A stretch of DNA of 64,000 nucleotides from Deltaproteobacteria bacterium (GTDB taxonomy: Bacteria; Myxococcota_A; UBA9160; SZUA-336): the NCBI GenBank assembly GCA_029261925.1, contig JAJDAJ010000070.1, forward strand, positions 67,613-131,612, read 5' to 3'. A program made the position numbers and the translations under genes. How positions within the stretch are numbered: the first letter of the stretch is position 1; every line of letters starts with the position of its first letter. The notes beneath the pieces were generated by a model. That model saw only the letters and a program-made list of their open reading frames with translations, did not search any database and was not told the origin of the DNA. This document shows, piece by piece, positions 18 to 47,113 of the stretch.

Positions 18-674
18 TCAGCGCAGGCCGGCCAGGTGCACGGGGAGCTGGCTCGCGTCCATGATCGCGCGCCAGCCGCGCGCGCCCCCGCCGGTCACCT
101 CGCGCTCCCAGCGCGAGAGGCGCGCGCGGAACACGCCGGGATCGGCGTTGTCGTGCTGCAGGCGCTTGACGTTCATGGCCACCACGTCGATGCCCTCGAA
201 CTCACCCTGCTCGATGTCCCGGCGCGTGCCCGCGGGCAGGTCCTGCTCGAGGTCGCTGAAGACCAGGATCACCCGGCTGCCCGAGTCGAGCTCGCGCAGG
301 TAGTCGGTGCCGAGCATCATCGCGCCGTGGATGTCGGTGTGCTCCGAGTTCCCCTCGCGCGCGGCGAACGTGTCGAGCCGGCGCGCCAGCGCGAGCTTCT
401 GCGCGTTGGCCCGCGACGGCCGCGCGTCGAGCGTGACCAGGGCCTCGATGTTGTCCTTCTCGTAGCTCTCGCTGTCGATGCGGATCAGCAGCAGCGTGTC
501 GCCGGGCACCATCGCGGGCAGCACGTCGCGCTTGAGGATGGCCGCGACCTCGCCCTTCTGGTCGGCGTAGGTGCCCGACACGTCCACCAGCACGCAGATT
601 GCCTGGTCGTAGCGGCGGCCGTCGGTGCAGCCGAGCAGCAGCCCGGCGACGGCGAGAAGGGTGGCGGCCCTCAC
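18..674 (-). CDS. Putative lipoprotein with VWA-like fold (hypothetical)
   Basis: Same frame as ORF 18..1565. GTG at 672-674 gives 218 aa starting VRAATLLAVAGLLLGC (lipobox LLGC). DVSGT ... IRIDSES ... LVFSDLEQD spacing resembles a VWA/MIDAS fold. The GTG overlaps the stop of the upstream gene (GTGA at 671-674). The upstream part of the 515-aa ORF is Arg/Gly-rich, overlaps gene 671..2128, and is discarded. Confidence 0.6.
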   Translation of the reverse strand: MRAATLLAVAGLLLGCTDGRRYDQAICVLVDVSGTYADQKGEVAAILKRDVLPAMVPGDTLLLIRIDSESYEKDNIEALVTLDARPSRANAQKLALARRLDTFAAREGNSEHTDIHGAMMLGTDYLRELDSGSRVILVFSDLEQDLPAGTRRDIEQGEFEGIDVVAMNVKRLQHDNADPGVFRARLSRWEREVTGGGARGWRAIMDASQLPVHLAGLR

Positions 675-2128
675 AGCCGGCTCTCCCCGGTGACCGCCCC
701 CGCCTCGCGGCGCGCGCCGCGCAGCGGCGGCTCGTCCCAGTCGTTGCGGCTGCGGATCCACGCCTCGAGGCGCAGTGGTACAGCGATGTACACGTCGTAG
801 AGCGAGCAGGTCAGATCGGAGACGTGCGCCGCGACGCGTCCGACGATCCGCGCGGCGTGGCCCGTCACCTGAAGCACGAGAACCCCCGCGGACGCCATCA
901 CGTGGCGGCCGCTGTCGAGCAACATCTCGAGCGGGATGGCCACCATGGCCAGCACCCAGGGCAGCACGAAGCCGAGCACGGCCTGTCCGATCACCGGGAT
1001 GCGCGAGCTGCTGGCCTCGGCCACCACGCGACCGGTCTCGCCGGCCAGGGCGAGCTTGAGCGCGGCGTCGGCCTCCACGATCTGCTCGCGCAGGATCGCG
1101 AGCGACGCCTCCACCGAGGCGAGCACGAAGAGCGCCGCCAGCCCGACCCCGAGGATCAGGCGCCGGCGCGACGAGGCGATGCCGGCGAGCTTCGGGAAGA
1201 GCTCGGTGATGCCCAGGACGTCCATCACGAAGATGCCGACGGCCGCCTCCATCATCACGATCACCAGCGCCGCGAACGTCGATACCGGAACCCCGCCGAT
1301 GCGCGCGCCTGCCGGCACCAGCTCGGACATGGGAAGCGCGATCAGCTGGAAGTTGATGAAGGCCCCACCCAGGGCGATGGCGAGCACGATCACCGAGACC
1401 ACGAAGAGCTTCATCGCGGAGTAGCCCAGGGCCTGCGCCGCACGCTCCTCGTCGTCGCGGATCGCCTGGTAGTCCTCGGCGTAGCCGTCGATGCGCACCG
1501 TGATCTCGAGCGCCTCGGCCACCGCCTCGTGCATGCGCGACATCCAGCCGCGCACCTCCTTCCACGCCCCGGTCATGCGGCCCAGGAGCGTGTGGCGCTT
1601 CGCCGTGGCCTCGCGGTAGGCCGCCAGGGCCTTCTTCTCGCCCTCGCCCGAGGAGCGGCGGATCCCCTCGAGCACCTTGTGCACGTTGGGATCGCTCGAG
1701 GTGGGGATGGTCGCGATCGCCTGCGCGGCGGCGCTCCAGCCCGGCACCTCGGGCGGCGCGTCGCCGCAGTGCTCGTAGTCCTCCTCGAGCTTCTGGAGCA
1801 GGTCGTCCAGGCGCCGGTGCAGCTTCGAGTACTGCCCGAGCTTCGTGGCGAACTTCTGATCGATGCCGTGAAACTCCCGGTCGAGCTTGCGCTGCAGGTC
1901 CAGCGTGCCCGCCGCCAGCAGCACCGCCCGGCTGCGCTCACGCAGGGCGGCCGCGCCGGCCGCGCACCAGCCGGCGGCGGCACCGAGACCCTGGTCGACT
2001 CCCGAGCCGAGGCGGCGCAGCACGTCGAGCATCGGGGCGCGAGCCGCCCAGAGCAGCGCCACGCTCACCAGCCAGAGCAGGCCGAGCGAGAGAACCGGCC
2101 GCTCGGGCCAGAGGTAGATCGATTCCAT
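671..2128 (-). CDS. Hypothetical multi-pass membrane protein with long helical/charged domain
   Basis: 485-aa ORF. N-terminal TM segment (LSLGLLWLVSVALLWAA), about 200 aa of charged helical sequence (QRKLDREFHGIDQKF..LLQKLEEDYE), then 4-5 hydrophobic segments. No family recognised. Translationally coupled to the downstream lipoprotein gene. Confidence 0.6.
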   Translation of the reverse strand: MESIYLWPERPVLSLGLLWLVSVALLWAARAPMLDVLRRLGSGVDQGLGAAAGWCAAGAAALRERSRAVLLAAGTLDLQRKLDREFHGIDQKFATKLGQYSKLHRRLDDLLQKLEEDYEHCGDAPPEVPGWSAAAQAIATIPTSSDPNVHKVLEGIRRSSGEGEKKALAAYREATAKRHTLLGRMTGAWKEVRGWMSRMHEAVAEALEITVRIDGYAEDYQAIRDDEERAAQALGYSAMKLFVVSVIVLAIALGGAFINFQLIALPMSELVPAGARIGGVPVSTFAALVIVMMEAAVGIFVMDVLGITELFPKLAGIASSRRRLILGVGLAALFVLASVEASLAILREQIVEADAALKLALAGETGRVVAEASSSRIPVIGQAVLGFVLPWVLAMVAIPLEMLLDSGRHVMASAGVLVLQVTGHAARIVGRVAAHVSDLTCSLYDVYIAVPLRLEAWIRSRNDWDEPPLRGARREAGAVTGESRL

Positions 2129-2356: not shown

Positions 2357-3061
2357 ATGCGGAGTCCGCCCCGAGTCCTGCGCATCGTCGCCGTCCTCTG
2401 CGCCGCGCTGCTGGCACCACGCCAGGCGGCGGCGTTCTGGATCGAGCTCTCCAGCAGCGAGTTCGCGCTCGACAACCTGTTCAGCAGCGTCACCAGCTTC
2501 ACGCTGGAGATCGAGGTGGTCGCCCCGCTGCAGCCCGGTGCGTACGAGAACCCGCCGCTGGGCGACATCGAGTTCCGGGTGGTCGGCAGCCTGGACCCGA
2601 GCACGCCCGCCCGCAGCGCGAACTCCGCATTCACGGGCTTCGCCGTGGAGGACCGGGAGGAGCTCTCGGGACAGGCCTTCTACGCGCAGGGCAACGCGCT
2701 GCGCTTCGAGATCGCGAGCGACGCCGAGCTCGCCGACGGGCTCCAGGTATCGGAGCTGGCCGGCAGCGGGATCGTGTTCGAGTTCGACGGCCGCGAGCTG
2801 GGCACGGGCCGCTATCACCCGCCGATCCTCCAGCTGCGGGGCGACGGCAGCGGCTCGATCCGCAATGCGGCGAACACCGGCGGCATCAATCCCTTCACCG
2901 ACGTGGAGGTGAATGCAAGTATCGGCGACGAGTACGACGTGAGCCTCGGCTTCGATCCCGCCAGCTTGACGCTCGTCGAGGCACCCGAGCCGCCTTCCGC
3001 GGCCGTGCTGGCCGCCGCCGTCGCGATGCTGGCGGCGGCGCGACGACGACGACATCGCTGA
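2357..3061 (+). CDS. Secreted protein with PEP-CTERM-like C-terminal anchor
   Basis: ATG at 2357 in the frame of ORF 599..3061 (upstream part is antisense to gene 671..2128). Signal peptide MRSPPRVLRIVAVLCAALLAPRQAAA. C-terminus is VEAPEPPSAAVLAAAVAMLAAARRRRHR: PEP motif, hydrophobic helix, Arg cluster. Confidence 0.65.
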   Translation: MRSPPRVLRIVAVLCAALLAPRQAAAFWIELSSSEFALDNLFSSVTSFTLEIEVVAPLQPGAYENPPLGDIEFRVVGSLDPSTPARSANSAFTGFAVEDREELSGQAFYAQGNALRFEIASDAELADGLQVSELAGSGIVFEFDGRELGTGRYHPPILQLRGDGSGSIRNAANTGGINPFTDVEVNASIGDEYDVSLGFDPASLTLVEAPEPPSAAVLAAAVAMLAAARRRRHR

Positions 3062-3169: not shown

Positions 3170-4486
3170 ATGCGCCGCCTCCTGACCGTCCTGCTCGCGC
3201 TCCTGGCGGCGGCCAGCGCGCCCGCGCCGGGCGCGAGCGCCAGCGACTGTGCCGCGACCTCGGTGGGCTTCACGCCGCTGCTGGACCTGGGAACCGGAAC
3301 CTACCTGGGCTTCGAGGGCGGGCTGTACCCCGGCGGGAGCAGCGTGCCGCCCGCCGCGCACCTCGCGGCCGCGCTGGCCGCGGCCGGCGCCGTCGAGCGG
3401 CTCGACGCCAGCGGCGCGCCCGACCCGGGCGGGCGCTACGTGCTGCTCTCGATCGGCATGTCGAACACCGTGCAGGAGTTCCGACCGTTCGTGGAGCTGG
3501 CCGCGGTGCACCCCGACGTGGATCACGACGGGCTCGTGATCGCGAACGGCGCCCGCGGAGGTCAGAGCGCCCAGCTCTGGGACGCTCCCGACGAGCCGAA
3601 CTACGACCGCGTGCGCGACACGGTGCTGGCCGACCTGGGCGTGACCGAGGCCCAGGTACAGGCCGTGTGGATCAAGCAGGCGCTGCCGGCGCCGACGATC
3701 TCGCTCGCCGACGACCCGCCGAGCTCGGACGCCGTGACGCTGCAGGCGATCCTGGGCGACGTGGTCCGGGCCGTCCGCACCCGTTACCCGAACATCCGCC
3801 TCGCCTTCCTGTCCAGCCGCATCTATGCCGGCTACGCCGACAGCCCCCTGAACCCCGAGCCATTCGCGTACGAGACCGGCTTCTCGGCTCGCTGGCTGAT
3901 CTCGGCGCAGATCGGCCAGCAGGCGGGGCTGGGCATCGACGGGGTCTCCGGAGATCTCGACCCCGCCACGGCCGCGCCGCTGCTCGCCTGGGGCCCCTAC
4001 CTGTGGGCCGACGGGCTGGTCCCGCGCTCGGACGGGCTGGTCTGGATCTGTACGGACCTGGAGAGCGACGGCACCCACCCCTCGACCAGCGGCGAGGAGA
4101 AGGTCGCCGGGCTGCTGCTCGACTTCATGCTGGAATCGCCGCTCGCCCGCCCGTGGTTCCGCGCCGACGGCGGCGCTGGCCTGCTCGACGCCGACTCCGA
4201 CGGCCTCGCCGATGCCGCGGATCTCTGCCCGCTGTATCCCTCGAGCAACGCGGACGCGGACGGCAACGGGATCGGCGACGAGTGCGAGTGCGGCGATCAG
4301 AGCGGCGATGGCCTCGTCAACGTGGCGGACCTGCTCGCCATCAACGCCGCGATCTTCGACCCGACGCTGGTCACGCCGCTCTGCGACACCAACGACGATG
4401 GGGTCTGCGACGTGGGCGACATCCTGGGCGCCAACGCCCGGATCTTCGGGGCAGAGGCATTCTGCTCGCGGCGCCCGGCCCTGTAG
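3170..4486 (+). CDS. Secreted protein: possible SGNH-like hydrolase-fold domain + TSP3/dockerin-like C-terminal module
   Basis: 438-aa ORF with signal peptide MRRLLTVLLALLAAASAPAPGASA. YVLLSIGMSNT sits at a block-I-like position (fold assignment weak). C-terminal DADSDGLADAADLCP...DADGNGIGDECECGDQSGDGLVNVADLLAINAAIF...LCDTNDDGVCDVGDILGANARIFG...CSRRPAL. Confidence 0.8.
   Translation: MRRLLTVLLALLAAASAPAPGASASDCAATSVGFTPLLDLGTGTYLGFEGGLYPGGSSVPPAAHLAAALAAAGAVERLDASGAPDPGGRYVLLSIGMSNTVQEFRPFVELAAVHPDVDHDGLVIANGARGGQSAQLWDAPDEPNYDRVRDTVLADLGVTEAQVQAVWIKQALPAPTISLADDPPSSDAVTLQAILGDVVRAVRTRYPNIRLAFLSSRIYAGYADSPLNPEPFAYETGFSARWLISAQIGQQAGLGIDGVSGDLDPATAAPLLAWGPYLWADGLVPRSDGLVWICTDLESDGTHPSTSGEEKVAGLLLDFMLESPLARPWFRADGGAGLLDADSDGLADAADLCPLYPSSNADADGNGIGDECECGDQSGDGLVNVADLLAINAAIFDPTLVTPLCDTNDDGVCDVGDILGANARIFGAEAFCSRRPAL
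4188..4486 (+). other. TSP3 + dockerin-like Cys-containing C-terminal module (domain, copy 1)
   Basis: See CDS 3170..4486. Duplicated GDxxGDGxVNxxDxL / DxNDDGxCDxxDIL segments follow a DxDxDG...DLCP loop. Confidence 0.7.
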
Positions 4487-4598: not shown

Positions 4599-5993
4599 AT
4601 GGACAGGCAGCGCTCGAATCTCACCGGGGTGCCCCTCGCCCTGCTCGCGGGTCTCGCACTCGCACTGGTGGCCCCGCAGGCACACGCCGCGTGCGGAGAC
4701 GGCCTGGTCCAGGCCGGCGAACAGTGCGACGACGGCAACACGCGAGACACAGACGGCTGCACGGCCAGCTGCGAGACGCAGTCCGGGTACACCTGCGGGG
4801 GCGCGCCGAGCGTGTGCGCGACGAGCGGCCTCAACGTCTACCACATCGGGCACAGCCTGGTGAACGACATGATGCCCGAGATGCTGAGGGACCTGGCGGT
4901 CGATGCGGGCTTCGGACACAGCTACGACAAGCACCGCGTCAGCTCACCTTTCTCGCCGACACTGCGCTTCAAGTGGAACAACCCGACCATCGAGGGCGAC
5001 GGCGACTCGCTGTCGTTCGTCGAGCTCCCGACCGGGAACTACGACGTACTCGTGCTCACCGAGGGCCTGCCGCTCGACGTGGTCGGCGACGAGACCGCGC
5101 TGTACGCGGGCAACTACTACGACATGGCGCTCTCGAGCAACCCGACCGCCCAGGTCTACCTGTACGAGACCTGGTACCGGAACCAGCAGCCCGATCTCGC
5201 GGCGTTCCGCGAGAATACCCTGGCCTGGCGAGCGCAGTGGCAGCAGGTGATCGAGCAGGTGAACGCCGAGCGCGCGGGACCCGACATGCACCTCGTGCCC
5301 GGTGGCGCCGCACTGGTCGCCCTGCTCGATGCGATCGACTCGGAGCCGGACTTCCCTCAGATCGACTCGCTGCTCGATCTGTTCCGCCTGACGCCCCAGG
5401 GTGAGGTGGATCGCATCCACCTCAGCGAGCTGGGTCGCTACTTCATCGCGCTGGTCCATTTCGCGACCCTCTATCGCGAGAGCCCGGTGGGCCTCACGTT
5501 CCAGACAACCGACCGCGACGGCGATCCGTTCGAGGCCCCGAGCCCCGAGCTCGCGCTGCGCATGCAGCAGATCGCCTGGGAGGTCGTGAGCAGCGAGCCG
5601 CTGACGGGCGTCGGCACCGGGCCCGACGGCGACGGGGACGGTGTCGCCGACGCGGTCGACAACTGCCCGGCGGACCCCAACGCCTCGCAGACCGACCGCG
5701 ACGCGGACCTGCTCGGAGACGCCTGCGACCTCTGCCCGGACTTCGCCTCGTCCAACCAGGACACCGACGCCAACGGCATCGGCGACGAGTGCGAGTGCGG
5801 CGATCAGACCGGCGATGGCCGGGTCGACGTCGCGGACATCCTGGCGATCAACGCGGTGATCCTGGGGCAGGCACCGGCCGGCCCGCTGTGCGACGCGAAC
5901 GACGACGGCCTCTGCAACATCGCCGACATCCTGGGCGCGAATGCGAAGATCTTCGGCGCCCCGGCCTTCTGCGCCCGCCATCCCGCCCCCTGA
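4599..5993 (+). CDS. Secreted protein: Myxococcus-type Cys-rich repeat + SGNH-like region + TSP3/dockerin-like C-terminal module
   Basis: ATG 4599 is preceded by GGAGG (4590-4594). The alternative start is TTG 4557. Signal peptide ...LALLAGLALALVAPQAHA. CGDGLVQAGEQCDDGNTRDTDGCTASCETQSGYTCGG matches the TIGR02232-type repeat pattern. C-terminal DGDGDGVADAVDNCP..DRDADLLGDACDLCP..DTDANGIGDECECGDQTGDGRVDVADILAINAVIL..LCDANDDGLCNIADILGANAKIFG..CARHPAP. Confidence 0.8.
   Translation: MDRQRSNLTGVPLALLAGLALALVAPQAHAACGDGLVQAGEQCDDGNTRDTDGCTASCETQSGYTCGGAPSVCATSGLNVYHIGHSLVNDMMPEMLRDLAVDAGFGHSYDKHRVSSPFSPTLRFKWNNPTIEGDGDSLSFVELPTGNYDVLVLTEGLPLDVVGDETALYAGNYYDMALSSNPTAQVYLYETWYRNQQPDLAAFRENTLAWRAQWQQVIEQVNAERAGPDMHLVPGGAALVALLDAIDSEPDFPQIDSLLDLFRLTPQGEVDRIHLSELGRYFIALVHFATLYRESPVGLTFQTTDRDGDPFEAPSPELALRMQQIAWEVVSSEPLTGVGTGPDGDGDGVADAVDNCPADPNASQTDRDADLLGDACDLCPDFASSNQDTDANGIGDECECGDQTGDGRVDVADILAINAVILGQAPAGPLCDANDDGLCNIADILGANAKIFGAPAFCARHPAP
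5622..5993 (+). other. TSP3 + dockerin-like Cys-containing C-terminal module (domain, copy 2, most complete)
   Basis: See CDS 4599..5993. Three TSP3-like loops followed by the double dockerin-like segment. Confidence 0.7.
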
Positions 5994-6200: not shown

Positions 6201-6377
6201 TTGCTTTACTGGTCGATCGTCTTCTTCGTCGTGGCACTGCTCGCCGCCCTGTTCGGGTTCGGCGGCATCGCGGCGGGAGCCGCGGGGATCGCGAAGATCC
6301 TGTTCTTCGTGTTCGTGGTGCTGTTCGTGGTGAGCCTGATCATCGGTGGCCGCACGCGCGCGGCGCCGCCCGTGTGA
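6201..6377 (+). CDS. DUF1328 (YtjA-like) small membrane protein
   Basis: TTG 6201 with GGAGGG at 6191-6196. The 58-aa product [50 protein letters not shown] matches the DUF1328/UPF0391 signature (GFGGIAg.[10 protein letters not shown]). Confidence 0.75.
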
Positions 6378-6388
6378 GGGAGGACACC

Positions 6389-6934
6389 ATGAGTCGTTCC
6401 AGGAATCTACGACACGCAGTCATGGTGCTGGGCGCTCTGGCGCTGGCGATCTCGCCGGCCGTCAGCGCGGCTCCCCCTCCCAGCTCGATCGCGGGGGCGA
6501 TCCCGGGCTGCGCCTGCGACGCCGACCGCGCCCAGCTGCTGGAGCGCTGGGAGAGCATCACCGCTGCGGCCAGCGTGGACGAGGCCCGATCCCTGGCCCT
6601 CGCCGACGTGGAGTCCGCGACCCGCGCACTGAGCCGCGCGCGCTGGTTCGCTCCGTTCAGCGACGATCTCGTGACCGCGCGGGAGCGCCTCGAGCGCTAC
6701 GGCGTTCGCGTCGCCGCCGCCGACAGCTCGCCAGCCGTCGCCGCGGAGTTCGCCAGCCTCGTCAAGCTGCCCCGGTCGGGAGCCCGCGTGCTCGGCGACA
6801 TCGACCTCGATGACGACGTCGACCTGAACATCGATGCCGGCTGCAGCTTCAGCGGCGGGGAGGTCATCGCCATCGTCCTCGGGTTGATCCTGGGGATCAT
6901 TCCCGGCCTCATCCTGCTCATCCTGCTCTGCTAG
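6389..6934 (+). CDS. Hypothetical secreted protein with C-terminal hydrophobic anchor
   Basis: ATG 6389 with GAGGGAGG upstream. Signal peptide LRHAVMVLGALALAISPAVSA. C-terminal EVIAIVLGLILGIIPGLILLILLC. Only 11 nt after the DUF1328 gene. Confidence 0.6.
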   Translation: MSRSRNLRHAVMVLGALALAISPAVSAAPPPSSIAGAIPGCACDADRAQLLERWESITAAASVDEARSLALADVESATRALSRARWFAPFSDDLVTARERLERYGVRVAAADSSPAVAAEFASLVKLPRSGARVLGDIDLDDDVDLNIDAGCSFSGGEVIAIVLGLILGIIPGLILLILLC

Positions 6935-8401: not shown

Positions 8402-9886
8402 ATGAAGACGATCGGTCACTGGATGGATGGCAAGGCCGTCCCGGGCGCCTCCGGGCGCACCGGCGGCGTTTACGATCCCGCGCGCGGCGTCGAGGCGGCG
8501 CGCGTCGCGCTGGCCTCGAGCGCCGAGGTCGACACCGCGGTACGCGGCGCGGCGGAGGCGGCCCGCGCGTGGGCCGCCACACCCCTGGGGGCGCGCGCGG
8601 CGGCGATGTTCCGGCTGCGCGAGCTGGTGGACGCGAGTCGCGAGCGGCTGGCCGCCGCGGTCACCGCGGAGCACGGCAAGGTCCTCTCGGACGCCGCGGG
8701 CGAGGTCGACCGCGGCCTCGAGAACATCGAGTTCGCCTGCGGGATCCCCAACCTGCTCCGCGGCGCGCACTCCACCCAGGTCTCGAACGGGATCGACGTG
8801 CACACCGTGCGCACGCCGCTGGGCGTGGTCGCGGGCATCACGCCCTTCAACTTCCCGGTGATGGTTCCGCTGTGGATGCTGTCCGGCGCCCTGGCCTGCG
8901 GCAACGCGTTCGTGCTCAAGCCGTCCGAGAAGGATCCCTCGGCATCACTGATCCTGGCGGAGCTGGTGCAGGAGGCCGGCTTCCCGGACGGGCTGCTCCA
9001 GGTGGTGCAGGGAGACGCCGAGGCCGTCGATGCCCTGCTCGAGCACCCCGGGGTCGCCGCGATCTCGTTCGTGGGCAGCACCCCGGTGGCGCGCCACGTG
9101 TACGAGACCGGCACGCGCCACGGCAAGCGCGTGCAGGCGCTGGGCGGCGCCAAGAACCACATGGTGGTGCTGCCCGACGCCGACGTGAACGCCGCGGCCG
9201 ACGCCGCGATCTCGGCGGCCTACGGCTCCGCGGGCGAGCGCTGCATGGCGATCTCCGTGGTGGTGGCCGTCGGCGCCGTCGCCGACCCGCTCGTCGCGGC
9301 CATCGCGGAGCGGATCCCCTCGATCGAGATCGGCCCCGGCGCGGACCCGGATTCGGCCATGGGCCCGCTGATCACCGCGCAGCATCGCGATCGCGTGCGC
9401 TCCTACGTGGACGGGGCCGAGGCAGAGGGCGCACGCCTGGTGGTGGACGGCCGCGACCAGGGACCCGGCACGGGCTTCTTCCTGGGCTGCACGCTGCTCG
9501 ACGAGGTGCGACCCGGCATGAAGGTCTACGACGACGAGATCTTCGGCCCCGTGCTCGGCGTGACCCGCGTGGGCAGCTTCGACGACGCGCTCGCGCTCGT
9601 GAACTCCAGTCCCTACGGCAACGGCGTGGCGCTGTTCACGCGCGACGGCGGCGTGGCCCGGCGCTTCGAGCTGGAGGTCGAGGTGGGCATGGTCGGCATC
9701 AACGTGCCGATCCCGGTACCCGTCGGCTACCACTCCTTCGGGGGCTGGAAGGACTCGATCTTCGGCGACAGCGCCATGTACGGGCCCGAGGGCGTGCGCT
9801 TCTACACGCGACCGAAGGTGGTCACGACGCGCTGGCCGGACCCGTCGACCAGCGCGATCGACCTGGGCTTCCCGACCAGCCGCTGA
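8402..9886 (+). CDS. mmsA: Methylmalonate-semialdehyde dehydrogenase (CoA-acylating), ALDH family
   Basis: ATG 8402 (MKTIGHWMDGK). ALDH motifs FNFPVMVPLWM, VLKPSEKDP, FVGSTPVARHVY, AGERCMA (catalytic Cys) and NVPIPVPVGYHSFGGWKDS, which is typical of MmsA. Confidence 0.9.
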   Translation: MKTIGHWMDGKAVPGASGRTGGVYDPARGVEAARVALASSAEVDTAVRGAAEAARAWAATPLGARAAAMFRLRELVDASRERLAAAVTAEHGKVLSDAAGEVDRGLENIEFACGIPNLLRGAHSTQVSNGIDVHTVRTPLGVVAGITPFNFPVMVPLWMLSGALACGNAFVLKPSEKDPSASLILAELVQEAGFPDGLLQVVQGDAEAVDALLEHPGVAAISFVGSTPVARHVYETGTRHGKRVQALGGAKNHMVVLPDADVNAAADAAISAAYGSAGERCMAISVVVAVGAVADPLVAAIAERIPSIEIGPGADPDSAMGPLITAQHRDRVRSYVDGAEAEGARLVVDGRDQGPGTGFFLGCTLLDEVRPGMKVYDDEIFGPVLGVTRVGSFDDALALVNSSPYGNGVALFTRDGGVARRFELEVEVGMVGINVPIPVPVGYHSFGGWKDSIFGDSAMYGPEGVRFYTRPKVVTTRWPDPSTSAIDLGFPTSR

Positions 9887-9892
9887 TCCGCC

Positions 9893-10756
9893 TCAGAGCT
9901 TGACCTCGGCGTCGGCCCACTCGATCAGCTGCGGCACCAGCAGGGGCCAGCGCTCGAACAGGCTCCCGCCCTGCGCCGCCGAGATCCCGCGCTCGATCCA
10001 CTCGCGGTCGCCCCAGGGCGGCTCGACCAGCTTCGCGGTCGGCAGCAGCTCGGCGAGGCGCTCGGTGGTCTCGCGCGTGTGGTGCACGTCGCTCGCACCG
10101 CTGCGGAAGACCAGCGCGGGGACGGCCAGCCCGCGTGCCTGGGCGTCGGGCAGGCCGGGGATCAGCTCGTCCTCCGGCGGCACGTAGGCCAGCATCCACT
10201 TCTCGAGCTTCGCGATGAACTCGCGGCGATCCTGCTTGAGGATCCGGTCGCGGTTGCCCGGGTTGCGCTCGATGACCTCCTGCCACTCCGGCAGGTCCGC
10301 CACCGCCTCCATCCCGTCCTGCCAGGCCGCCTGGATCGAGCCGCCGCAGTAGTGCACGCCCAGGCTCATCAGACCGAAGGGTCCGCCGCTCATCCACCAC
10401 ATGGCCACGCCCGCCGCCACGTCGGGGTGGCGCACCGTCGTCAGCAGGGAGCAGCGCGAGCCGCCCGACCCGCCCACGATGACCGCCGGCGCCATGCCGA
10501 GCTGGCGCAGCAGGCCCGCGAGCGCGTCGGCCTGCATGGCCGATTCGGACGGCCCGGTGAAGCACACGTCCGAGGCCCCGCAGTTCGGGCGGTCGTAGAT
10601 CAGCACCTTCTTGCCGTGCGCCGCGAGCGCGCTGGCCATCTCGCGGATGCCGCCGTAGTCCTTGCTGAAGCGCCCTCCGGGCGTGATCACCCAGGGCTGC
10701 CCCTCGCCGATGACCTCGTAGGCGAGCGAGAGACCGTCCACATCGGCAACTGGCAT
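9893..10756 (-). CDS. Alpha/beta hydrolase
   Basis: 287-aa ORF with nucleophile elbow VGGSGGS. Overall length and pattern match alpha/beta-fold hydrolases. Confidence 0.85.
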   Translation of the reverse strand: MPVADVDGLSLAYEVIGEGQPWVITPGGRFSKDYGGIREMASALAAHGKKVLIYDRPNCGASDVCFTGPSESAMQADALAGLLRQLGMAPAVIVGGSGGSRCSLLTTVRHPDVAAGVAMWWMSGGPFGLMSLGVHYCGGSIQAAWQDGMEAVADLPEWQEVIERNPGNRDRILKQDRREFIAKLEKWMLAYVPPEDELIPGLPDAQARGLAVPALVFRSGASDVHHTRETTERLAELLPTAKLVEPPWGDREWIERGISAAQGGSLFERWPLLVPQLIEWADAEVKL

Positions 10757-10903
10757 GCTGGTTCCCCTGTTCCATCGTGGCCAGCGAGCGTCCCGGCGGC
10801 CGCCCTGGCCCCGGGAGCACGCGACATCCGGTGGCGGTACTATAAGCCATCGGGCCTTTCTGGGCGGCGCGCCGCGCCGCCGGGCCTCTCGAGGGAGCCG
10901 GGA

Positions 10904-12082
10904 ATGTCGGATCTAGCGCCGGGCGTACGTGTCATCGACTGCGACAGCCACTTCACAGAGTCACCCGATCTCTGGACGAGCCGCGCGCCCGCCGCCTACA
11001 AGGACAAGGTCCCACGGGTGGAGAAGATCGACGGACGGCCGACCTGGATCGTCGAGGAGAAGACCGAGCTGGGCTTCGCCGGCGGCGGCAGCGTCATCGA
11101 CCGCGACGGCAAGAAGTTCCCGTTCGCCGAGTCGATGACCGAGTGGGACATCGATCGCTCGCACGTGGCGGCCCACGACTGGAGGGCCCGGCTCGAGGTG
11201 CTGGACGACTCCGGCATCTGGGCGCAGGTGCTCTTCCCGAACTCGTTCGGCCTGGGTGGTCAGGACCTGATCGGTGTCGAGGATCCCAAGCTGCGCGACC
11301 TGTGCATCGAGATCTACAACGACGCGGCGGCCGAGCTGCAGGACGCCTCGGGTATCCGCTTCCTTCCGATGCCCGTGATGCCGGCCTGGGACATCGACGC
11401 CTGCGTGCGCGAGGCCGAGCGCGTCGCGGGCCTCGGCCTGCGCGGCATCAACATGACCTGCGACCCCCAGGACCTGGGCGCGCCGGATCTCGCGAACCGC
11501 GCCTGGGACCCGCTCTGGGACGTCTGCGAGGATCTGCACCTGCCGGTGCACTTCCACATCGGCGCCAGCATCACCACCATGAACTTCTACGGCGAGTACT
11601 TCTGGGAGTCCCAGCACGAGTACGTCAAGCCGGCGATCGGCGGCTCCATGCTCTTCCTGAACAACGCGCGCGTGGTCATCAACACGATCCTGAGCGGAAT
11701 GTTCGACCGGCACCCGAAGCTGAAGATGGTCTCGGTCGAGAGCGGCGTGGGCTGGGTGCCCTTCATCCTCGAGACCACCGACTACGAGGTGGCCGAGAAC
11801 GCGCCCGAGCAGCTCAAGGACCTGAACCGCATGCCCTCGGAGTACTTCAAGGACCACTGGTACGCGACCTACTGGTTCGAGAAGAGCCAGGGCAACCTGC
11901 AGGCGCTGATCGACGCGGTGGGCGACGAGTGCGTGCTCTTCGAGACCGACTTCCCGCACCCGACGTGCCTGTATCCGAAGCCGCTCGACGAGATCAGGGA
12001 TCACGTCTCGAAGCTGCGTCCCGAGACGCGCCGCCGCCTGCTGGGCGAGAACGCGCAGAAGCTGTACCGGCTCGAGTTCTAG
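10904..12082 (+). CDS. Amidohydrolase family 2 (ACMSD-like metal-dependent hydrolase/decarboxylase), paralog A
   Basis: ATG 10904 in the frame of ORF 10079..12082. VIDCDSHFTE, LHLPVHFHIGAS and LFETDFPHPTC motifs. Strongly similar to CDS 36761..37930. Confidence 0.9.
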   Translation: MSDLAPGVRVIDCDSHFTESPDLWTSRAPAAYKDKVPRVEKIDGRPTWIVEEKTELGFAGGGSVIDRDGKKFPFAESMTEWDIDRSHVAAHDWRARLEVLDDSGIWAQVLFPNSFGLGGQDLIGVEDPKLRDLCIEIYNDAAAELQDASGIRFLPMPVMPAWDIDACVREAERVAGLGLRGINMTCDPQDLGAPDLANRAWDPLWDVCEDLHLPVHFHIGASITTMNFYGEYFWESQHEYVKPAIGGSMLFLNNARVVINTILSGMFDRHPKLKMVSVESGVGWVPFILETTDYEVAENAPEQLKDLNRMPSEYFKDHWYATYWFEKSQGNLQALIDAVGDECVLFETDFPHPTCLYPKPLDEIRDHVSKLRPETRRRLLGENAQKLYRLEF

Positions 12083-12096
12083 GCGGCGGACCGGCC

Positions 12097-14694
12097 TCAG
12101 TAGCGATAGCGCAGGCGAACGCCGTAGAAGCGGGGCTCCGAGTACCACGCGAGCGGCGGCGAGCCGAACGTCCTGGGGCCGATCAGGATGTTCTGCTTGA
12201 TCGCGTCGTCCTCGACGTTGTTCACGAAGACCTCCGCCTCCCAGCGCTCCTCGGGGCTCGTGTAGAGCAGCTTGAGATTCGTGGTGTGGAAGTCGTCCTG
12301 CAGGTCGAAGCTCCGGTTGAAGATCCGGAAGTAGGTCTCGTCCTGCCAGGCGTACTGGACCCGCGGCGTGAGCGTTCCCCAGGCGCCCAGCGGGATGTCG
12401 TACTCGACGCTCACGTTGAGCTTCCAGCGCGGCGCCCTCGACAGCTCCCGTCCGCCGAAGTCGTCGAGACCGTCGCGATCGCCCAGGGCTCCGCAGGGCA
12501 CCTGGTTCGCGAAGTCGTCGGGGCCCGCGGGACAGTTGCGATCCTCCTGGAAGGACAGTCCGCGCCGCTCTGCGATCGTGCGCTGCAGGAGCCGCTCCGC
12601 CTCGAAGTCGTCGCCCAGCGACGCCGGATCCAGGGAGAAGTAGTCGCGCGTCTCCGTGTCGATGAACGAGATCAGCCCCTGGACCCGTAGCCCCGGGAGC
12701 GGGAACGCGCGCACCTCGAGATCCCAGCCGTACATTCGCGCATCGGTGTTCTCGGTGCGGATGCGCGTGCCGTCGATCAGGGCGAGCTGCATCGAGTCAT
12801 AGGCGTAGAAGAACCCCTCCAGGTTCAGCTGCAGGCTGCTGCCGAGGAACTCGCTCTTCGAGCCCAGCGTGTACGCCCAGATCTTCTCCGGCTCGTACGT
12901 TCCCACGCCCCCCGTCCCGAATCCCCCGGACTTGTAGCCCCGGTCGATGCCCGCGTAGAGCAGCTGATCGTCGGTCGGGCGCCACTCCAGGCGCGCACCC
13001 CACATGGTGCCGCGCTGCGTCAGCGAGCAGTCGGGCAGCGGCGGATCGACCCCGGACACGACCTGCCGGAACTCGAGTCCGTCGTTCCGGGACTCGCACG
13101 CCTCGTAGGTGGACTCGTTGCGCGCGGACAGGAAGCTGCGCTTGCGGTCCTTGATCCAGCGCCCGCCCAGGCCGAACGTCACCCTCTCGGCGAGCTGGTA
13201 CTCCGCGTGGAGCGCCGCGCCGTAGCTCTTGTTCTCGACCTCCTGCAGGATCACGAGCCGGTCGACGTTCGCGTTGCGGATCTGCGGGGAGGTGATCAGG
13301 CCCTCGCCCCGCTGCCGCATGAAGAACAGGCTGGACTGCCAGGTGAGGCGCTCGCCCGTCACGCCGCTCCACTGCACCTCGCCGGAGTACTCGTCGAAGC
13401 GGGAGTCCGAGAACAGGTTGAAGAACTCGCTGTCGACGCTGTCGAAATCCCAGTCGAAGCGATTCTCCGTGCGCTGGTAGCCGCCCAGGAGCTTCAGGCT
13501 GCTGGTGCCGAGCAGCGGCAGGTCCGGAAGCTCCCAGTCCGCACGACCCGTCAGGCCCCAGTAGCGGTCGTCCTGGGCCGCGAGCATGTCTGCGTGGGTG
13601 CGGCGCGGGTCCAGGTCCTCCGTGGCGGGCGCGTGGCGGAACGGCTCGAACGTGCCGGTCGTGAAGTCGAAGCCGCCCTCGACCCGGCAGGCGGCAGCGA
13701 TCGGCATGAACGAGGTGAAGTCCGGGGAGATCAGCCCGCCCGGGGGCGCGCTGGCCAGATCGCAGGGGTCGGAGTTGAACACCGGAACCACGTCCGCCTG
13801 CGGTCCGTTGCCCGTCTCCTTGTAGTAGTTGTAGCCCAGCACCACGTCGAGGGCGTCGGTGGGCTGCAGGCGGATCTTGGCCCGCAGACCGAAGTTGTCG
13901 GCGTCGAACGGATCGCGGCTGTCGCTGACGCTCACGTTGTCGAGAAAACCGTCGCGATCCTCGTGGAAGACTGCGAGGCGCGCCGCCATGCGCTCGCCGA
14001 GCGGCAGGTTCACCATGCCGCGGATCCGCACGCGATCGTAGTTTCCGAAGAGCACGTCGGCCTCGGCCTCGTACTCCATCGAGGGATCGTTGGTGATGAC
14101 GTGGATCGCGCCCGAGGTCGAGTTCTTCCCGCCCGTCAGCCCCTGCGGTCCGCGCCGGACCTCGATCGCCTGGACGTCGAAGAAGGCGACGCGGGCCGCC
14201 GCGGGGCGCCCGTAGTTGATGCCGTCCACGTGAAACGCCACCCCGGGCTCGCCGGTCAGGCTGGCATTCTCCGTTCCCACCGCGCGCAGCGTGACGATGG
14301 CCTGCTGGCCCTGCTGGCCCACGTGGAGGCCCGGCACGTTGAGCGAGAGCCCGTCCACGTTCCCGATGCTCATCCGGTCGAGGTCACCGGCGGCGAATGC
14401 GGTGATCGCCTGCGCCTCGTCCTGGACGTCGGTCACGTCGATGCGCTCTCCGGTGACCGAGATCGCCTCGATGCCGACGGGCGTGGGGACCGCCTCCTCG
14501 CCCGCTGCAGCCTCCGCCGCAGCGGGCGCCGCGGGAGGATCCTCCTGCGCGAGGGCCGGTCCGGCTGCGGGCAGCCGTAGCGCCAGCGCGAAGGCGGCCA
14601 GGAGTCGCCGCAGGGCGGCGCCCGGCGGCGACGAGCGGGGGGCGGCGCCCGCGCGCCTCCCCCCGCTCCGGAGAACGGGATCCCCTCGCCTCAC
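12097..14694 (-). CDS. TonB-dependent outer-membrane receptor
   Basis: 865-aa ORF, GTG start. Signal peptide RRLLAAFALALRLPAAGPALA. Plug motifs ISVTGER, IEVRRGPQGLTGGKNSTSGAIHV. C-terminal beta-barrel ends in YGVRLRYRY. Starts 3 nt after the stop of the upstream gene. Confidence 0.9.
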   Translation of the reverse strand: MRRGDPVLRSGGRRAGAAPRSSPPGAALRRLLAAFALALRLPAAGPALAQEDPPAAPAAAEAAAGEEAVPTPVGIEAISVTGERIDVTDVQDEAQAITAFAAGDLDRMSIGNVDGLSLNVPGLHVGQQGQQAIVTLRAVGTENASLTGEPGVAFHVDGINYGRPAAARVAFFDVQAIEVRRGPQGLTGGKNSTSGAIHVITNDPSMEYEAEADVLFGNYDRVRIRGMVNLPLGERMAARLAVFHEDRDGFLDNVSVSDSRDPFDADNFGLRAKIRLQPTDALDVVLGYNYYKETGNGPQADVVPVFNSDPCDLASAPPGGLISPDFTSFMPIAAACRVEGGFDFTTGTFEPFRHAPATEDLDPRRTHADMLAAQDDRYWGLTGRADWELPDLPLLGTSSLKLLGGYQRTENRFDWDFDSVDSEFFNLFSDSRFDEYSGEVQWSGVTGERLTWQSSLFFMRQRGEGLITSPQIRNANVDRLVILQEVENKSYGAALHAEYQLAERVTFGLGGRWIKDRKRSFLSARNESTYEACESRNDGLEFRQVVSGVDPPLPDCSLTQRGTMWGARLEWRPTDDQLLYAGIDRGYKSGGFGTGGVGTYEPEKIWAYTLGSKSEFLGSSLQLNLEGFFYAYDSMQLALIDGTRIRTENTDARMYGWDLEVRAFPLPGLRVQGLISFIDTETRDYFSLDPASLGDDFEAERLLQRTIAERRGLSFQEDRNCPAGPDDFANQVPCGALGDRDGLDDFGGRELSRAPRWKLNVSVEYDIPLGAWGTLTPRVQYAWQDETYFRIFNRSFDLQDDFHTTNLKLLYTSPEERWEAEVFVNNVEDDAIKQNILIGPRTFGSPPLAWYSEPRFYGVRLRYRY

Positions 14695-14697
14695 TGC

Positions 14698-15053
14698 TTA
14701 CTGGCCGGCCACCGGGGAGCGGCCGCAGGTCGTGGTGAGGCCGCCGGCGCTGAAGATGTCCGCGTTCACGGCGAGCAGGTCGAGGATGTCGGCCACGTCG
14801 TCGAAGTTCGCGTCGGCCAGCGGCGCGGAGAGGCGGATGTTGCCCTCGGCGGTCGTGCCCGCCCCCGGGTCGACGAAGACGAACGAGTTGATCAGCAGGA
14901 TGTCGCCGATGTTGACCAGCCCGTCGCGCGTGGCGTCCCCGCACTCGCACTCGTTGCCGCGTCCGTTCCCGTTCGTGTCGGAGAGCTGGTCGATCTCCGA
15001 GTAAGAGGGACAGAGATCCACGCCGTCCGCCACGCCGTCACAGTCGAGATCCG
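14698..15053 (-). other. TSP3 + dockerin-like C-terminal module (domain, copy 3, divergent)
   Basis: See CDS 14698..16077. The second half lacks the LCD..C Cys pair, and the C-terminus is TTTCGRSPVAGQ rather than CARxPAP. Confidence 0.6.
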
Positions 15054-16077
15054 GACGGAAGTGGGGGCCGTAGTTGCGGACCGCGCAGTCGGGCCCCGGA
15101 TCCCCGTTCACGGGGTAGACCTGGATGATGCTGCAGTTCTCCTCCGGGAAGCCGCGGAAGACGAACGGCGCCGTGTTGCAGATCGTCGTGTTCGGGGATC
15201 CGTCCGCCAGCACGTCATTGGGCTGGAAGCGCCAGCCGCGCTCGCGCAGGTCGCAGCCCCCCAGTGCATCGCACTGGCTGCCGGTCGAGGTGCAGGGCAC
15301 GGTGCGGTCGTCCAGGCACACGCCGTGCAGCTGGCCCGGGACCTCGAAGTCCTCGTCCATGGCGAACGGGGTGCCCGGGCCGCCCTCGAAGATCCAGGGC
15401 GCCATGTTCGCCTGGTCGAAGGCGAGCGAGGGCGCGTCGGTGATCACCGGGTACTTGCTCAGGCTCCCGGCGGCGCAGAGGGCTCCGTCGATCAGATCGT
15501 TGCAGCAGATCAGGCTGCGGTTGGCGTCCCCGGTGCCGTTGTTGATCAGCGTCCAGCGGATCTCGGTGCTGCCGGGCGGGTCGCTGCGCGCGAAGCGAAG
15601 GCCCGTGCCCGCCAGGTCGCCGTTGACCGCGGCCGAGATCCAGATCGGCCCGGCCTGGGTCGGCGTCACCGACTGGAAGCCGTTGGCGTAGACGTGGTCG
15701 ATGCCCTGGGTGCCCACGTCCACCGCCATCTCGACCGGGCAGCCCTCCGTGAGCGTGGGCACGCAGTCGTCCTGCTCGCGGATGAAGAAGGCCCCGAAGA
15801 GCGGCGCGAAGGCGCGCTCGGAGCCGCAGTCGGGACCGCCGAGACCGGTGCTCCGGATGTACAGGTAGCTGCCATCGAAGTCCTCGTGATCCCAGGCGAA
15901 CGGGTCGGCGGGAGCCGGCTCGCGGCCATAGGAGTTCGGGGCGCTCAGCCCGTACTTCGTCACCGTGCAGCCGCCCGAGCAGTCGATGGCGATCTGTGCG
16001 TCGGCGCCCGGCGCGTACATCCACCCCGCGATGGCGAGCGCCCCGACGATGCTCCAGCTTCTTGCGTTCTGTCTCAT
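14698..16077 (-). CDS. Secreted Cys-rich protein with TSP3/dockerin-like C-terminal module
   Basis: ATG at 16075-16077 with GGAGGG upstream. Signal peptide MRQNARSWSIVGALAIAGWMYAPGADA. Many Cys in the N-terminal ~340 aa. C-terminal DLDCDGVADGVDLCP..DTNGNGRGNECECGDATRDGLVNIGDILLINSFVF...DANFDDVADILDLLAVNADIF (divergent copy). Confidence 0.8.
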   Translation of the reverse strand: MRQNARSWSIVGALAIAGWMYAPGADAQIAIDCSGGCTVTKYGLSAPNSYGREPAPADPFAWDHEDFDGSYLYIRSTGLGGPDCGSERAFAPLFGAFFIREQDDCVPTLTEGCPVEMAVDVGTQGIDHVYANGFQSVTPTQAGPIWISAAVNGDLAGTGLRFARSDPPGSTEIRWTLINNGTGDANRSLICCNDLIDGALCAAGSLSKYPVITDAPSLAFDQANMAPWIFEGGPGTPFAMDEDFEVPGQLHGVCLDDRTVPCTSTGSQCDALGGCDLRERGWRFQPNDVLADGSPNTTICNTAPFVFRGFPEENCSIIQVYPVNGDPGPDCAVRNYGPHFRPDLDCDGVADGVDLCPSYSEIDQLSDTNGNGRGNECECGDATRDGLVNIGDILLINSFVFVDPGAGTTAEGNIRLSAPLADANFDDVADILDLLAVNADIFSAGGLTTTCGRSPVAGQ

Positions 16078-16141
16078 CTTTCCCTCCTCGAGCAAGCCGT
16101 GGTCACGCGCTTGCGCTGTGATCGAATCGAATCGCGCGCGG

Positions 16142-17842: not shown

Positions 17843-18025
17843 GGATCTCCTCCTCGCCAGGAGCCCTGCGTGCCCCCCGGCCATCCAGCCTACGAATACC
17901 ACAGACCCGGTGGTAAGAACCACGCAAACGCGTAGCCAGAGGAGCGAAGAAGCGACGTATCCGGGCCGGAGCCCCGGCCCGCTCGGCCCCTCCGGGCGCG
18001 CGGCCGCGCGCCCCGGGGACCGGCG

Positions 18026-18793: not shown

Positions 18794-18895
18794 GGGTCCC
18801 TCCCGCGGGCACCACGCCCGGACGCCAGGCTACACGGCGCGCAGCGTGCTGCGGGAACCGCCCGGCCCACGACCGGGCGCGGGCGGGGCGCGGAC

Positions 18896-47111: not shown

Positions 47112-47113
47112 GG

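Follow-up and report, generated by a model that had tools for sequence, protein, structure and literature searches.

Why do four secreted proteins with unrelated cargos end in the same module of ~100 amino acids? The question arises from a 64,000-nucleotide stretch of a deltaproteobacterial contig, here called the window. A preliminary description of this DNA had noted four such open reading frames, had read their common end as TSP3-like repeats followed by a dockerin-like domain, and had proposed a single mechanism of anchoring, assembly or export for all carriers. The four reading frames are present where it had placed them, and the module is indeed common to four unrelated cargos.

Four carrier genes and their common C-terminus

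Gene A (positions 3170-4486, plus strand) encodes a Sec-signal protein of 438 aa, whose cargo (residues ~25-339) is one of a very large family of secreted proteins, with 7084 homologs; a TSP3 repeat (4187-4285, plus strand; D-x-D-x-D-G...D-L-C-P...N-G-I-G-D-E-C) leads into a putatively Cys-stapled dockerin (4289-4483, plus strand; C-G-D-Q-S-G-D-G ... C-S-R-R-P-A-L). The product of gene B (4599-5993, plus strand), 464 aa long, carries a Sec signal and, in its N-terminal part, a myxo Cys-rich repeat (TIGR02232, DUF4215); its module, at 5622-5993, consists of two TSP3 repeats (5622-5792, plus strand), a dockerin of the same putatively stapled kind (5796-5990, plus strand) and the stop codon. The product of gene C (14698-16077, minus strand) is a Cys-rich Sec-signal protein of 459 aa, in which a TSP3 repeat (14947-15051, minus strand) is followed by a divergent dockerin (14701-14943, minus strand) with the C-terminal end C-G-R-S-P-V-A-G-Q. 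Gene D (39838-41163, plus strand) encodes a Sec-signal protein of 441 aa with a TSP3 repeat (40861-40962, plus strand) and a putatively Cys-stapled dockerin (40966-41160, plus strand) that ends in C-A-R-Y-P-A-P. By inspection and hydropathy, each of the four proteins has a signal-peptide-like hydrophobic segment at its N-terminus and none has a hydrophobic C-terminal anchor. A TonB-dependent receptor gene (12097-14694) is co-directional with gene C, its start 3 nt from the gene C stop; a DDE transposase lies just upstream of gene D, and the gene D segment is of lower GC.

Alignment of the last ~100 residues of proteins A-D gives 37 invariant columns and 46-69% identity. At the nucleotide level, the window copies share only 69-73% identity, and 19 of 66 same-amino-acid codons differ between the A and B modules, which indicates that the modules are old paralogs under selection. 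The motif details of the preliminary description hold up in the alignments: the NGIGDxCECGD junction, the duplicated GDxxGDGxVNxxDIL and DxNDDGxCNxxDIL segments, and the C-terminal tail, which takes the form C-[ASR]-R-x-P-x-P. The six conserved Cys residues that it assigned to three copies are seen in A, B and D; in copy C, the Cys pair of loop 2 is replaced by Ala/Ala, and 11 residues are inserted between the helices. Proteins A, B and D have almost the same helix motifs, in keeping with a single partner for all copies in a genome. A candidate fifth copy, at ~48362, was discarded, being a 17-residue half-repeat in a non-coding context that neither HMM detects and that probably arose by chance.

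A TSP3 repeat joined to a type-I-like dockerin

The first part of the module is a 36-residue, Asp-rich TSP3 repeat with a conserved Cys pair. In profile searches, module positions 1-35 match the TSP3 repeats of COMP (E 2.2e-13) and TSP-2 (E 3e-10), and an NCBIfam scan returned partial matches to NF047638 (MtsC) and NF033765 (CglD). The likeness to thrombospondin/COMP type-3 repeats (PDB 3FBY, 1YO8), bacterial OmpA (5WTL) and MtsC (NF047638) lies in the first ~35 residues of the module; unlike thrombospondin and COMP, the window module has 1-2 repeats only and forms no long Ca-binding wire. Its TSP3 repeats appear instead to be a Ca-rigidified linker into the dockerin.

The second part of the module is a true dockerin of type-I-like character. 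It comprises two tandem segments of ~22 residues, each with a 12-residue Ca loop (ligands at positions 1, 3, 5, 9 and 12) followed by a helix, and the two halves of the protein B dockerin are identical at 10 of 21 positions. For the protein B dockerin, AlphaFold (AF2) predicts two 11-residue helices, each preceded by a loop (pLDDT 89, pTM 0.79). When this model was compared with the PDB by Foldseek, 27 of 34 matches were dockerins in complex with cohesin (TM-score by target 0.62-0.78, rmsd 1.5-2.9 Å), with E-values that are weak (0.2-1) because the domain is small. A dockerin-only profile, built from 44 sequences with the TSP3 repeat removed and searched against the PDB, found dockerins in 21 of its 23 matches, the best being the CelS dockerin (E 2.4e-4). 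Fold and profile evidence thus bear out the earlier structural reading of one or more TSP3 repeats followed by a two-loop, type-I-like dockerin.

Curated models miss the module at their thresholds. For PF00404 (dockerin; cutoff 22.9 bits), B scores 15.1 and C 14.6 bits, A and D give no match at E<=1, and only 6 of 43 relatives match at E<=1e-3. The window proteins reach 14-20 bits against PF02412 (TSP3), below its cutoff of 25, a model matched by 33 of the 43 relatives at E<=1e-3. The NCBIfam GC-type dockerin NF041540 (67-position model, cutoff 29 bits) matches no window protein at E<=1; the positive controls P0293, P0299 and P0366 score 35-63 bits.

Calcium ligands and Cys residues were counted over 120 modules. 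The ligand positions are D38, N/T/S40, D42, N/D/T46 and D49 in loop 1, and D68, N70, D72, N/D/T76 and D79 in loop 2, so that both loops are intact in ligand pattern and the module is likely to bind Ca2+. C14, C34, C36 and C94 are present in 118-120 of the 120 modules, whereas C67 and C75 are lost together in six of the seven modules that miss either one. Six conserved Cys residues suggest three disulfides, and co-variation of the Cys residues leads to a predicted pairing of C14 with C34 in the TSP3 repeat, of C67 with C75 across Ca loop 2, and of C36 with C94. In dockerins, a residue at -3 to -1 before G0 contacts a C-terminal residue as a clasp (PMC3821032). C36 stands at -1 relative to G0, that is, at the clasp position, and its predicted pairing with the invariant C-terminal C94 would be a covalent form of this N-to-C clasp.

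A clasp between the domain termini, predicted for the window module, is a feature of type I dockerins such as those of Clostridium thermocellum Cel48S/CelS (2MTE/1DAQ) and of Xyn10B (1OHZ/2CCL). Shared with these are the duplicated ~22-residue segment with its two F-hand loops and helices, the predicted fold (TM-score by target up to 0.78) and the usual C-terminal place on a modular secreted protein. In contrast to these dockerins, the window module has V-x and N-x in place of the Ser-Thr and Lys-Arg recognition residues, falls below the PF00404 cutoff (about 15 versus 22.9 bits), and carries three putative disulfides, a constant TSP3 fusion and an invariant C-x-R-x-P-x-P end; it also sits on non-CAZyme cargo in a diderm host, with no cohesin found in the sequence surveyed.

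An annotated sister subtype is the GC-type dockerin NF041540 of Planctomycetota/Phycisphaerales. It, too, is a dockerin variant at the C-terminus of secreted, non-cellulosomal proteins in diderms, and it is found on direct homologs of cargo A. Both types have a Cys just before loop 1 and a C-terminal Cys (C36 and C94, in 118-119 of 120 window-type modules). GC-type domains, however, measure about 55-65 aa, with aromatic-rich helices (DFFxF) and a G-C-x end (G-C, then 0-3 residues), and they have neither a TSP3 repeat nor a Cys pair in loop 2; the window type always follows a TSP3 repeat and ends in C-x-R-x-P-x-P. A literature search yielded no paper on, or binding partner for, either type. Dockerin and TSP3 also occur together in non-cellulosomal extracellular proteins described from the genomes of other diderms, with proposed roles in attachment or assembly and putative partners: the giant 'dockerin-type' proteins of Omnitrophota (bioRxiv 10.1101/2023.11.21.568195), the hypothetical 'planctosome' of planctomycetes (PMC6461901) and the dockerin-like motifs of Saccharophagus degradans (PMC2386152). 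Those are giant multi-repeat proteins or specific predicted complexes, whereas the window type is a single compact TSP3-dockerin cassette that recurs as a C-terminal tag on many small unrelated cargos. The module is therefore an uncurated variant of a known non-cellulosomal dockerin. It does have the additional conserved Cys residues and the invariant tail that the preliminary description had pointed out, and it falls below the thresholds of curated models, but its novelty was overestimated: a sister subtype with the same Cys bracket is already annotated as NF041540, and dockerins are already common as C-terminal tags on non-cellulosomal secreted proteins of diderms.

Distribution, cargos and gene neighbourhood

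Of the top 150 representative clusters from an exhaustive search, 57 matched the full profile, so the module is not a chance resemblance. The expanded family that four copies in one window had implied is real: many metagenome clusters carry the module, and one unrelated contig (L006) has five copies within 10 kb. Among 116 full-length matches, 106 end no more than 10 aa from the C-terminus, on cargos of 100-2580 aa; internal or tandem copies occur in P0106 (three) and in P0109, P0228 and P0233 (one each). Public sources give the carriers no informative names.

The cargos are diverse. Those of A and B are unrelated (best BLASTP E 20), and the cargo Pfam families of 43 scanned relatives are varied and non-CAZyme, with no glycoside hydrolase or CBM found by Pfam in these relatives or among the window cargos. 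Of the earlier cargo labels, the myxo Cys repeat of B was borne out (TIGR02232, 46 bits against a cutoff of 20.8), and the 'SGNH-like' and 'YD-like' labels were not confirmed by Pfam. A survey of 120 cargo A homologs at 55-65% identity revealed different C-terminal extensions on one cargo family: ~81 have dockerin-like tails, including NF041540 ('GC-type dockerin domain-anchored') and type I, ~17 have a hydrophobic helix and a basic tail that is weakly IPTL-CTERM-like, and ~10 have no C-terminal extra at all. Such swapping of anchors suggests that the module tethers or localises its cargo, although it shows only that the C-terminal position is modular and does not make all its occupants anchors. 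PEP-CTERM and IPTL-CTERM tails, which take this same place on the cargo A family in other lineages, consist of a short motif, a transmembrane helix and an Arg-rich tail and are processed by exosortase; the window module is a soluble folded domain and has no such combination of motif, transmembrane helix and basic cluster. The maximal 10-residue hydropathy in the last 30 aa of the window proteins is 1.3-1.7 with no basic tail, and PF07589 and TIGR sorting-domain models gave no match on any of the four. A literature search on dockerins together with PEP-CTERM found no paper.

No cohesin (PF00963) was detected by Pfam scans in the about 44 open reading frames of the window, so the earlier remark that no cohesin-like partner is visible there holds at Pfam sensitivity; a PDB sequence search with three unannotated window reading frames came back empty. 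For a search for conserved neighbours, narrow search patterns left only 15 loci from a metagenome scan (mostly 1-5 kb) and three from a genome scan. Across seven longer loci, no neighbour family recurs. No cohesin is annotated next to the module genes of L004, L006-8 and L031-33, and neither in the window nor in the surveyed loci is a secretion or sortase-like gene repeatedly found close to the module. Many genomes with dockerins but without cohesins were reportedly described by Peer et al. in 2009.

A PEP-CTERM protein whose gene (2357-3061) lies 108 nt upstream of A and B was considered as a cryptic cohesin or anchor and rejected. It is confidently predicted by AF2 as a beta-sandwich; its listed top 50 Foldseek matches include no cohesin (TM-scores 0.1-0.2), and its homologs lie in unrelated neighbourhoods with no module gene near, which means that the adjacency is not conserved. 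PEP-CTERM tails are present on other proteins of the window as well. The ORF-poor region at 55-61 kb had been considered for rRNA, which was rejected, as Rfam gives one tRNA and the stretch is a 1773-aa PEP-CTERM reading frame. The genes around the module genes in the window are catabolic enzymes for non-carbohydrate substrates, and the host, a diderm, encodes TonB receptors as well as PEP-CTERM proteins.

What the module may do

We propose, with a probability of roughly 0.6, that the composite module is a cargo-independent docking handle, folded by Ca2+ and disulfides, that tethers Sec-exported cargos to a common receptor of the envelope or matrix. Tagged proteins would be exported by Sec, after which the module would fold with Ca2+ and disulfide formation, its TSP3 repeat or repeats connected by the C-E-C junction to the type-I-like dockerin, in which a helix follows each of the two F-hand Ca loops. 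The folded module would then dock diverse cargos onto one common receptor of the cell envelope or matrix; a candidate receptor, cohesin-like or other, may be encoded elsewhere in the genome. In its tethering role, the module would be interchangeable with GC-type dockerins and exosortase-type anchor tails. Both the tethering and the partner are inferences on our part. The single mechanism of anchoring, assembly or export put forward at the outset thus gains plausibility from anchor swapping, and stops short of being demonstrated because no partner was found in the sequence surveyed.

A bolder extension, which we regard as speculative, is that uncultivated diderms practise cohesin-independent surface tethering, in which a non-cohesin envelope receptor captures a regulon of tagged exoproteins in a Ca2+- and disulfide-dependent manner. 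A rival reading of low probability is an orphan dockerin with no protein partner, acting as a Ca-dependent unit of folding, stability or solubility, or using its acidic Ca sites to bind a non-protein ligand such as exopolysaccharide, LPS or a mineral surface. The absence of cohesin from all sequence surveyed, both window reading frames and relatives' loci, would suit such a module, as would the annotation of TSP3-rich bacterial proteins in Ca-dependent cell cohesion and gliding (NF047638 and NF033765, partial matches) and the variability across the family of positions equivalent to the cohesin-specificity residues 11 and 18. Both helices are nevertheless strongly conserved, with Asn at helix position 17 in 100-111 of 120 modules and near identity among A, B and D; such conservation is more than Ca binding and the packing of a small hydrophobic core would demand and argues against a partnerless domain, as does the place of the module on cargo A homologs, where it stands in for membrane-anchor tails.

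We disfavour, as improbable, the export or sorting signal of the preliminary description, whereby a dedicated secretion or sorting machine would recognise, and might also cleave, the module and above all its C-x-R-x-P-x-P end, as happens to exosortase substrates or T9SS C-terminal domains. The extreme C-terminal location in 106 of 116 matches, the conserved terminal motif and the alternation with exosortase-like tails on one cargo family are all compatible with such a signal, but cellulosomal dockerins are mostly C-terminal too and are not sorting signals. Moreover, the module is a confidently folded helical domain, Ca-binding by its ligand pattern and devoid of a transmembrane segment or basic cluster; the genuine PEP-CTERM tails of the window look quite different; the internal and tandem copies would be out of place; and no secretion or sortase-like gene recurs alongside. 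A classical cellulosome-like complex, with the four proteins on a multi-cohesin scaffoldin for polysaccharide degradation, is highly improbable despite the homology to type I dockerins and an internal two-fold sequence symmetry typical of dual-binding dockerins, given that no dockerin sits on a carbohydrate-active enzyme (no GH or CBM) among the window cargos or the 43 relatives scanned, that no cohesin or scaffoldin was seen in the sequence surveyed, that the host is a diderm of the TonB and PEP-CTERM kind, and that the nearby catabolic genes serve non-carbohydrate substrates.

Non-cellulosomal dockerins are abundant in genomes, but for hardly any of them is a partner known or a role established. 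The window subtype is compact and sharply conserved, with several copies per genome and small cargos that should express easily; together with its position in place of anchor tails, these properties make it a practical handle on orphan dockerins in outer-membrane bacteria. With a dedicated HMM, many proteins now called 'hypothetical' would be annotated as exoproteins that are probably tethered, and the predicted disulfide-clasped dockerin could serve protein engineering as a robust docking part. If the non-cohesin receptor exists, tethering of this kind would operate alongside exosortase sorting and the GC-type dockerins of Planctomycetes and be exchangeable with both in evolution, and finding that receptor would settle what 'orphan' dockerins bind, a question of long standing.

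Four secreted proteins and their common C-terminal module

Genes A (3170-4486, +), B (4599-5993, +), C (14698-16077, -) and D (39838-41163, +) are open reading frames whose products all begin with a signal-peptide-like segment and lack a hydrophobic C-terminal anchor. Over their last ~100 residues the four align with 37 invariant columns and 46-69% identity; their N-terminal parts, or cargos, are mutually unrelated, the adjacent pair A and B reaching a best BLASTP E of 20. Reading frames, module alignment and A/B cargo comparison thus all agree with the preliminary description of one C-terminal module on four unrelated proteins. At the nucleotide level the modules are 69-73% identical, and between A and B 19 of the 66 codons for the same amino acid differ, so that, judged by sequence, they are old paralogs maintained by selection rather than recent copies. 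By a six-frame motif scan and two HMMs, the window contains exactly four copies; a possible fifth at ~48362 is a 17-residue half-repeat in a non-coding context, probably due to chance. Directly upstream of gene D lies a DDE transposase (DDE_Tnp_1_4; 38092-39477, +). GC content is 65-67% over ~38000-48000, compared with 70-74% elsewhere in the window, and GC3 is 0.84 for gene D versus 0.91-0.94 for A-C; this ~10-kb segment may be mobile or may have arrived by horizontal transfer.

A dockerin behind a thrombospondin repeat

No Pfam or NCBIfam model reaches its own cutoff on the modules of A-D: Pfam Dockerin_1 (cutoff 22.9 bits) scores 15.1 on B, 14.6 on C and nothing on A and D, Pfam TSP_3 (cutoff 25 bits) scores 14-20, and NCBIfam matches are partial and far under threshold. 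The module is therefore not captured at threshold by a curated model. Searched against PDB sequences, a four-module profile splits it into two parts, with positions 1-35 a genuine thrombospondin type-3 (TSP3) repeat (COMP, E = 2.2e-13; TSP-2, E = 3e-10) and positions 37-90 giving weak dockerin matches. With TSP3 removed, a dockerin-only profile of 44 sequences finds 23 PDB matches; 21 are dockerins, that of CelS ranking first (E = 2.4e-4). An AlphaFold2 model built with a 62-sequence alignment is confident (pLDDT 89; >95 in the dockerin part) and predicts two loop-helix units, with helices of 11 residues. Foldseek places 27 of its 34 PDB matches among dockerins from cohesin-complex structures (TM-score by target 0.62-0.78, rmsd 1.5-2.9 A); TSP3 repeats and one chance match make up the rest. 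Because sequence profile and predicted fold concur, the module is very probably a type-I-like dockerin following one or more TSP3 repeats; the TSP3-like loops and the two EF-hand-like segments proposed earlier are upheld by the PDB profile searches, AlphaFold2 and Foldseek.

An exhaustive profile search of 1.84 billion representatives returned 13,869 matches at E<=1e-3, mostly giant TSP3-repeat proteins aligning to positions 1-35 only; 57 of the best 150 matched the whole profile. For 116 full-length matches from a retrieved sample that is skewed towards the query type, the module lies <=10 residues from the C-terminus in 106, and the tail of C-terminal modules reads C-[SAR]-R-[YQFH]-P-x-P. 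Internal modules account for the exceptions, one each in P0109, P0228 and P0233 and three in tandem in P0106 (1534 aa; residues 871-1252), the last being related cassettes of Q-C-G-D type without the loop-2 Cys pair. This predicted poly-dockerin architecture shows that the domain need not be terminal.

Across 120 aligned modules the canonical ligand positions are kept in both Ca loops, both helices carry D-I-[LV]-x-[IA]-N-x-x-I-F, and the Cys residues at alignment columns C14, C34, C36 and C94 are nearly invariant. The counts for C67 and C75 are 113 each, and six of the seven modules lacking either, copy C included, lack both. Cys conservation and this joint loss point to three disulfides: C14-C34 inside the TSP3 repeat, C67-C75 across loop 2, and C36-C94. 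C36 directly precedes the conserved Gly G0 (position -1). Dockerin structures show a residue at this position packed on the C-terminus, an 'intramolecular clasp' on which stability and cohesin binding depend (PMC3821032), and it is at this site that the putative C36-C94 disulfide falls.

NCBI already curates a sister subtype, the GC-type dockerin NF041540, as an anchor. Its tails have in common with the module a Cys bracket around the domain, but they have no TSP3 repeat, no Cys pair in loop 2 and no R-x-P-x-P end, and none of A-D matches this NCBIfam model. We found no paper mentioning the term 'GC-type dockerin', and none treating dockerin together with PEP-CTERM. Non-cellulosomal dockerins and combinations of dockerin with TSP3 are already on record without partners, from S. 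degradans (PMC2386152), the 'planctosome' proposal (PMC6461901) and Omnitrophota giant proteins (bioRxiv 10.1101/2023.11.21.568195). Given these precedents and the curated sister subtype, the window cassette is an uncurated dockerin variant rather than wholly new, set apart from other dockerins by obligate TSP3 fusion via a C-E-C junction, an extra putative loop-2 disulfide, a conserved helix Asn and the C-x-R-x-P-x-P end. Its novelty is more modest than the preliminary description proposed.

Carriers of the module and exchange of anchors

Among 43 relatives scanned with Pfam, cargos include RCC1, Laminin_G_3, FG-GAP, DUF11, MopE, DMFA2_C and many unannotated domains, with no glycoside hydrolase or CBM; Dockerin_1 is found at E<=1e-3 in only six. 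Public sources give exact-module carriers no name or 'hypothetical protein'; the MAGs that supply weaker relatives bear the labels Gammaproteobacteria, Deltaproteobacteria and Myxococcota. Five module ORFs are likewise packed into ~10 kb (9779-20338) of a 20-kb fragment from an unrelated metagenome contig (L006), one of which, P0053, has a deletion in the second helix; dense paralogous expansion thus recurs, and the locus shows local clustering of tagged genes and their turnover. On a 116-kb JGI contig (L004, 1-15663), a conserved ~200-aa family joins an N-terminal SELTAPSLLTVRAPT...GQSSPLG...TGFWPIAA domain to the module, often with C-E-C-S-D (P0011, P0013, P0014, P0017, P0028, P0033, P0036, P0208). 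It adjoins a TPS-domain protein, a ShlB/POTRA transporter, a CHAT protease, DUF928 and an ECF sigma factor, and the module may also be used inside such a two-partner-secretion/CHAT gene cluster. Positions 273-370, the C-terminal third, of NF045500 (Omp28-related selenoprotein, equivalog_domain) align to TSP3/dockerin (B, E = 1.3e-11), and P0150, an unrelated TSP3-dockerin protein, scores 195.5 bits against its cutoff of 200; with this model, TSP3-rich proteins could turn up as false positives near the threshold.

For the cargo of protein A, at least 7084 of 8000 candidates scored are homologs at E<=1e-5. In the 120 closest (55-65% identity), with tail classes partly assigned by eye, the conserved cargo end is followed by a dockerin-like tail in ~81, a hydrophobic helix and basic tail in ~17, nothing in ~10 and other domains in ~9; the TSP3 and Cys-stapled type occurs only in protein A itself. 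NF041540 ('GC-type dockerin domain-anchored protein'; cutoff 29) scores 35-63 bits on some of the dockerin tails, and the hydrophobic tails bear a weak, sub-cutoff likeness to IPTL-CTERM exosortase signals. The module thus fills a slot that evolution gives to recognised or presumed anchoring devices, and this is the strongest case available for a role in localising or tethering its cargo. Two further unannotated ends on these homologs are a ~70-aa Cys-bracketed domain (CRRG...VEVDC; P0318, P0352, P0368) and a ~150-aa domain finishing ...VEIAVE (P0283, P0306, P0326).

Docking partner and proposed role

Pfam scans of ~44 ORFs in the window identify catabolic enzymes, transporters, a subtilase and a transposase and leave several proteins unannotated. 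They reveal no secretion or sorting machinery and no cohesin, bearing out the first impression that no cohesin-like partner is visible here. ORFs without a Pfam match include 6260-6934 (+), directly downstream of gene B, with a signal peptide and the hydrophobic tail GLILGIIPGLILLILLC; 47114-48193 (-), a secreted Cys-containing protein; 671-2128 (-), a polytopic membrane protein; 44361-45161 (-); and 35988-36734 (-). Another, 55599-60920 (+), ends in VPEP, a TM helix and RPR and so encodes a giant PEP-CTERM protein (1773 aa, Gly/Ala/Ser/Asp-rich, repetitive); it is missed by a simple GC3 gene filter because its GC3 is below that of neighbouring genes, in a region of strong positive GC skew. 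A secreted 234-aa PEP-CTERM protein (2357-3061, +; tail VEAPEPP, TM helix, RRRRHR), the most promising partner candidate, lies 108 nt upstream of A and B and has 42 homologs, many with PF07589. AF2 predicts a confident beta-sandwich (pLDDT 88.9). It was rejected as a cohesin-like partner, the best 50 Foldseek matches listed containing no meaningful PDB structural match, cohesins included, and as a conserved neighbour, its homologs sitting in unrelated neighbourhoods without module genes; its fold may be undescribed. Across seven other loci, neither a cohesin nor any recurrent family accompanies the module genes. With the window ORFs, this indicates that a partner, if any, is not encoded beside its clients.

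The shared anchoring system of the preliminary description is plausible from the anchor swapping on cargo A homologs, although no partner was found in the ORFs and loci surveyed, and we put a tethering role at roughly 0.5-0.55. At appreciably lower odds, the module could be an orphan dockerin whose sole role is to stabilise the protein or to bind a non-protein ligand. We disfavour a secretion or sorting signal, which is improbable for a folded soluble domain with internal and tandem copies and no associated machinery found; the module also looks unlike the true PEP-CTERM tails of the window. A classical cellulosome, with neither CAZyme cargos nor a scaffoldin, is highly unlikely.

For tethering, the cassette, once Sec-exported, would bind Ca2+ and form its disulfides; the TSP3 repeat would act as a rigid Ca-loaded linker, and the two-helix face of the dockerin would dock to a shared receptor of the envelope or matrix. 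The TonB-dependent receptor, the PEP-CTERM proteins and the 70% GC mark the host as a diderm. Only 3 nt separate the end of gene C from the start of the same-strand TonB-dependent receptor gene (12097-14694, -), which makes co-transcription of the pair probable. A surface-retention role for C would be in keeping with a tethered, Cys-rich exoprotein that supplies an importer of the outer membrane.
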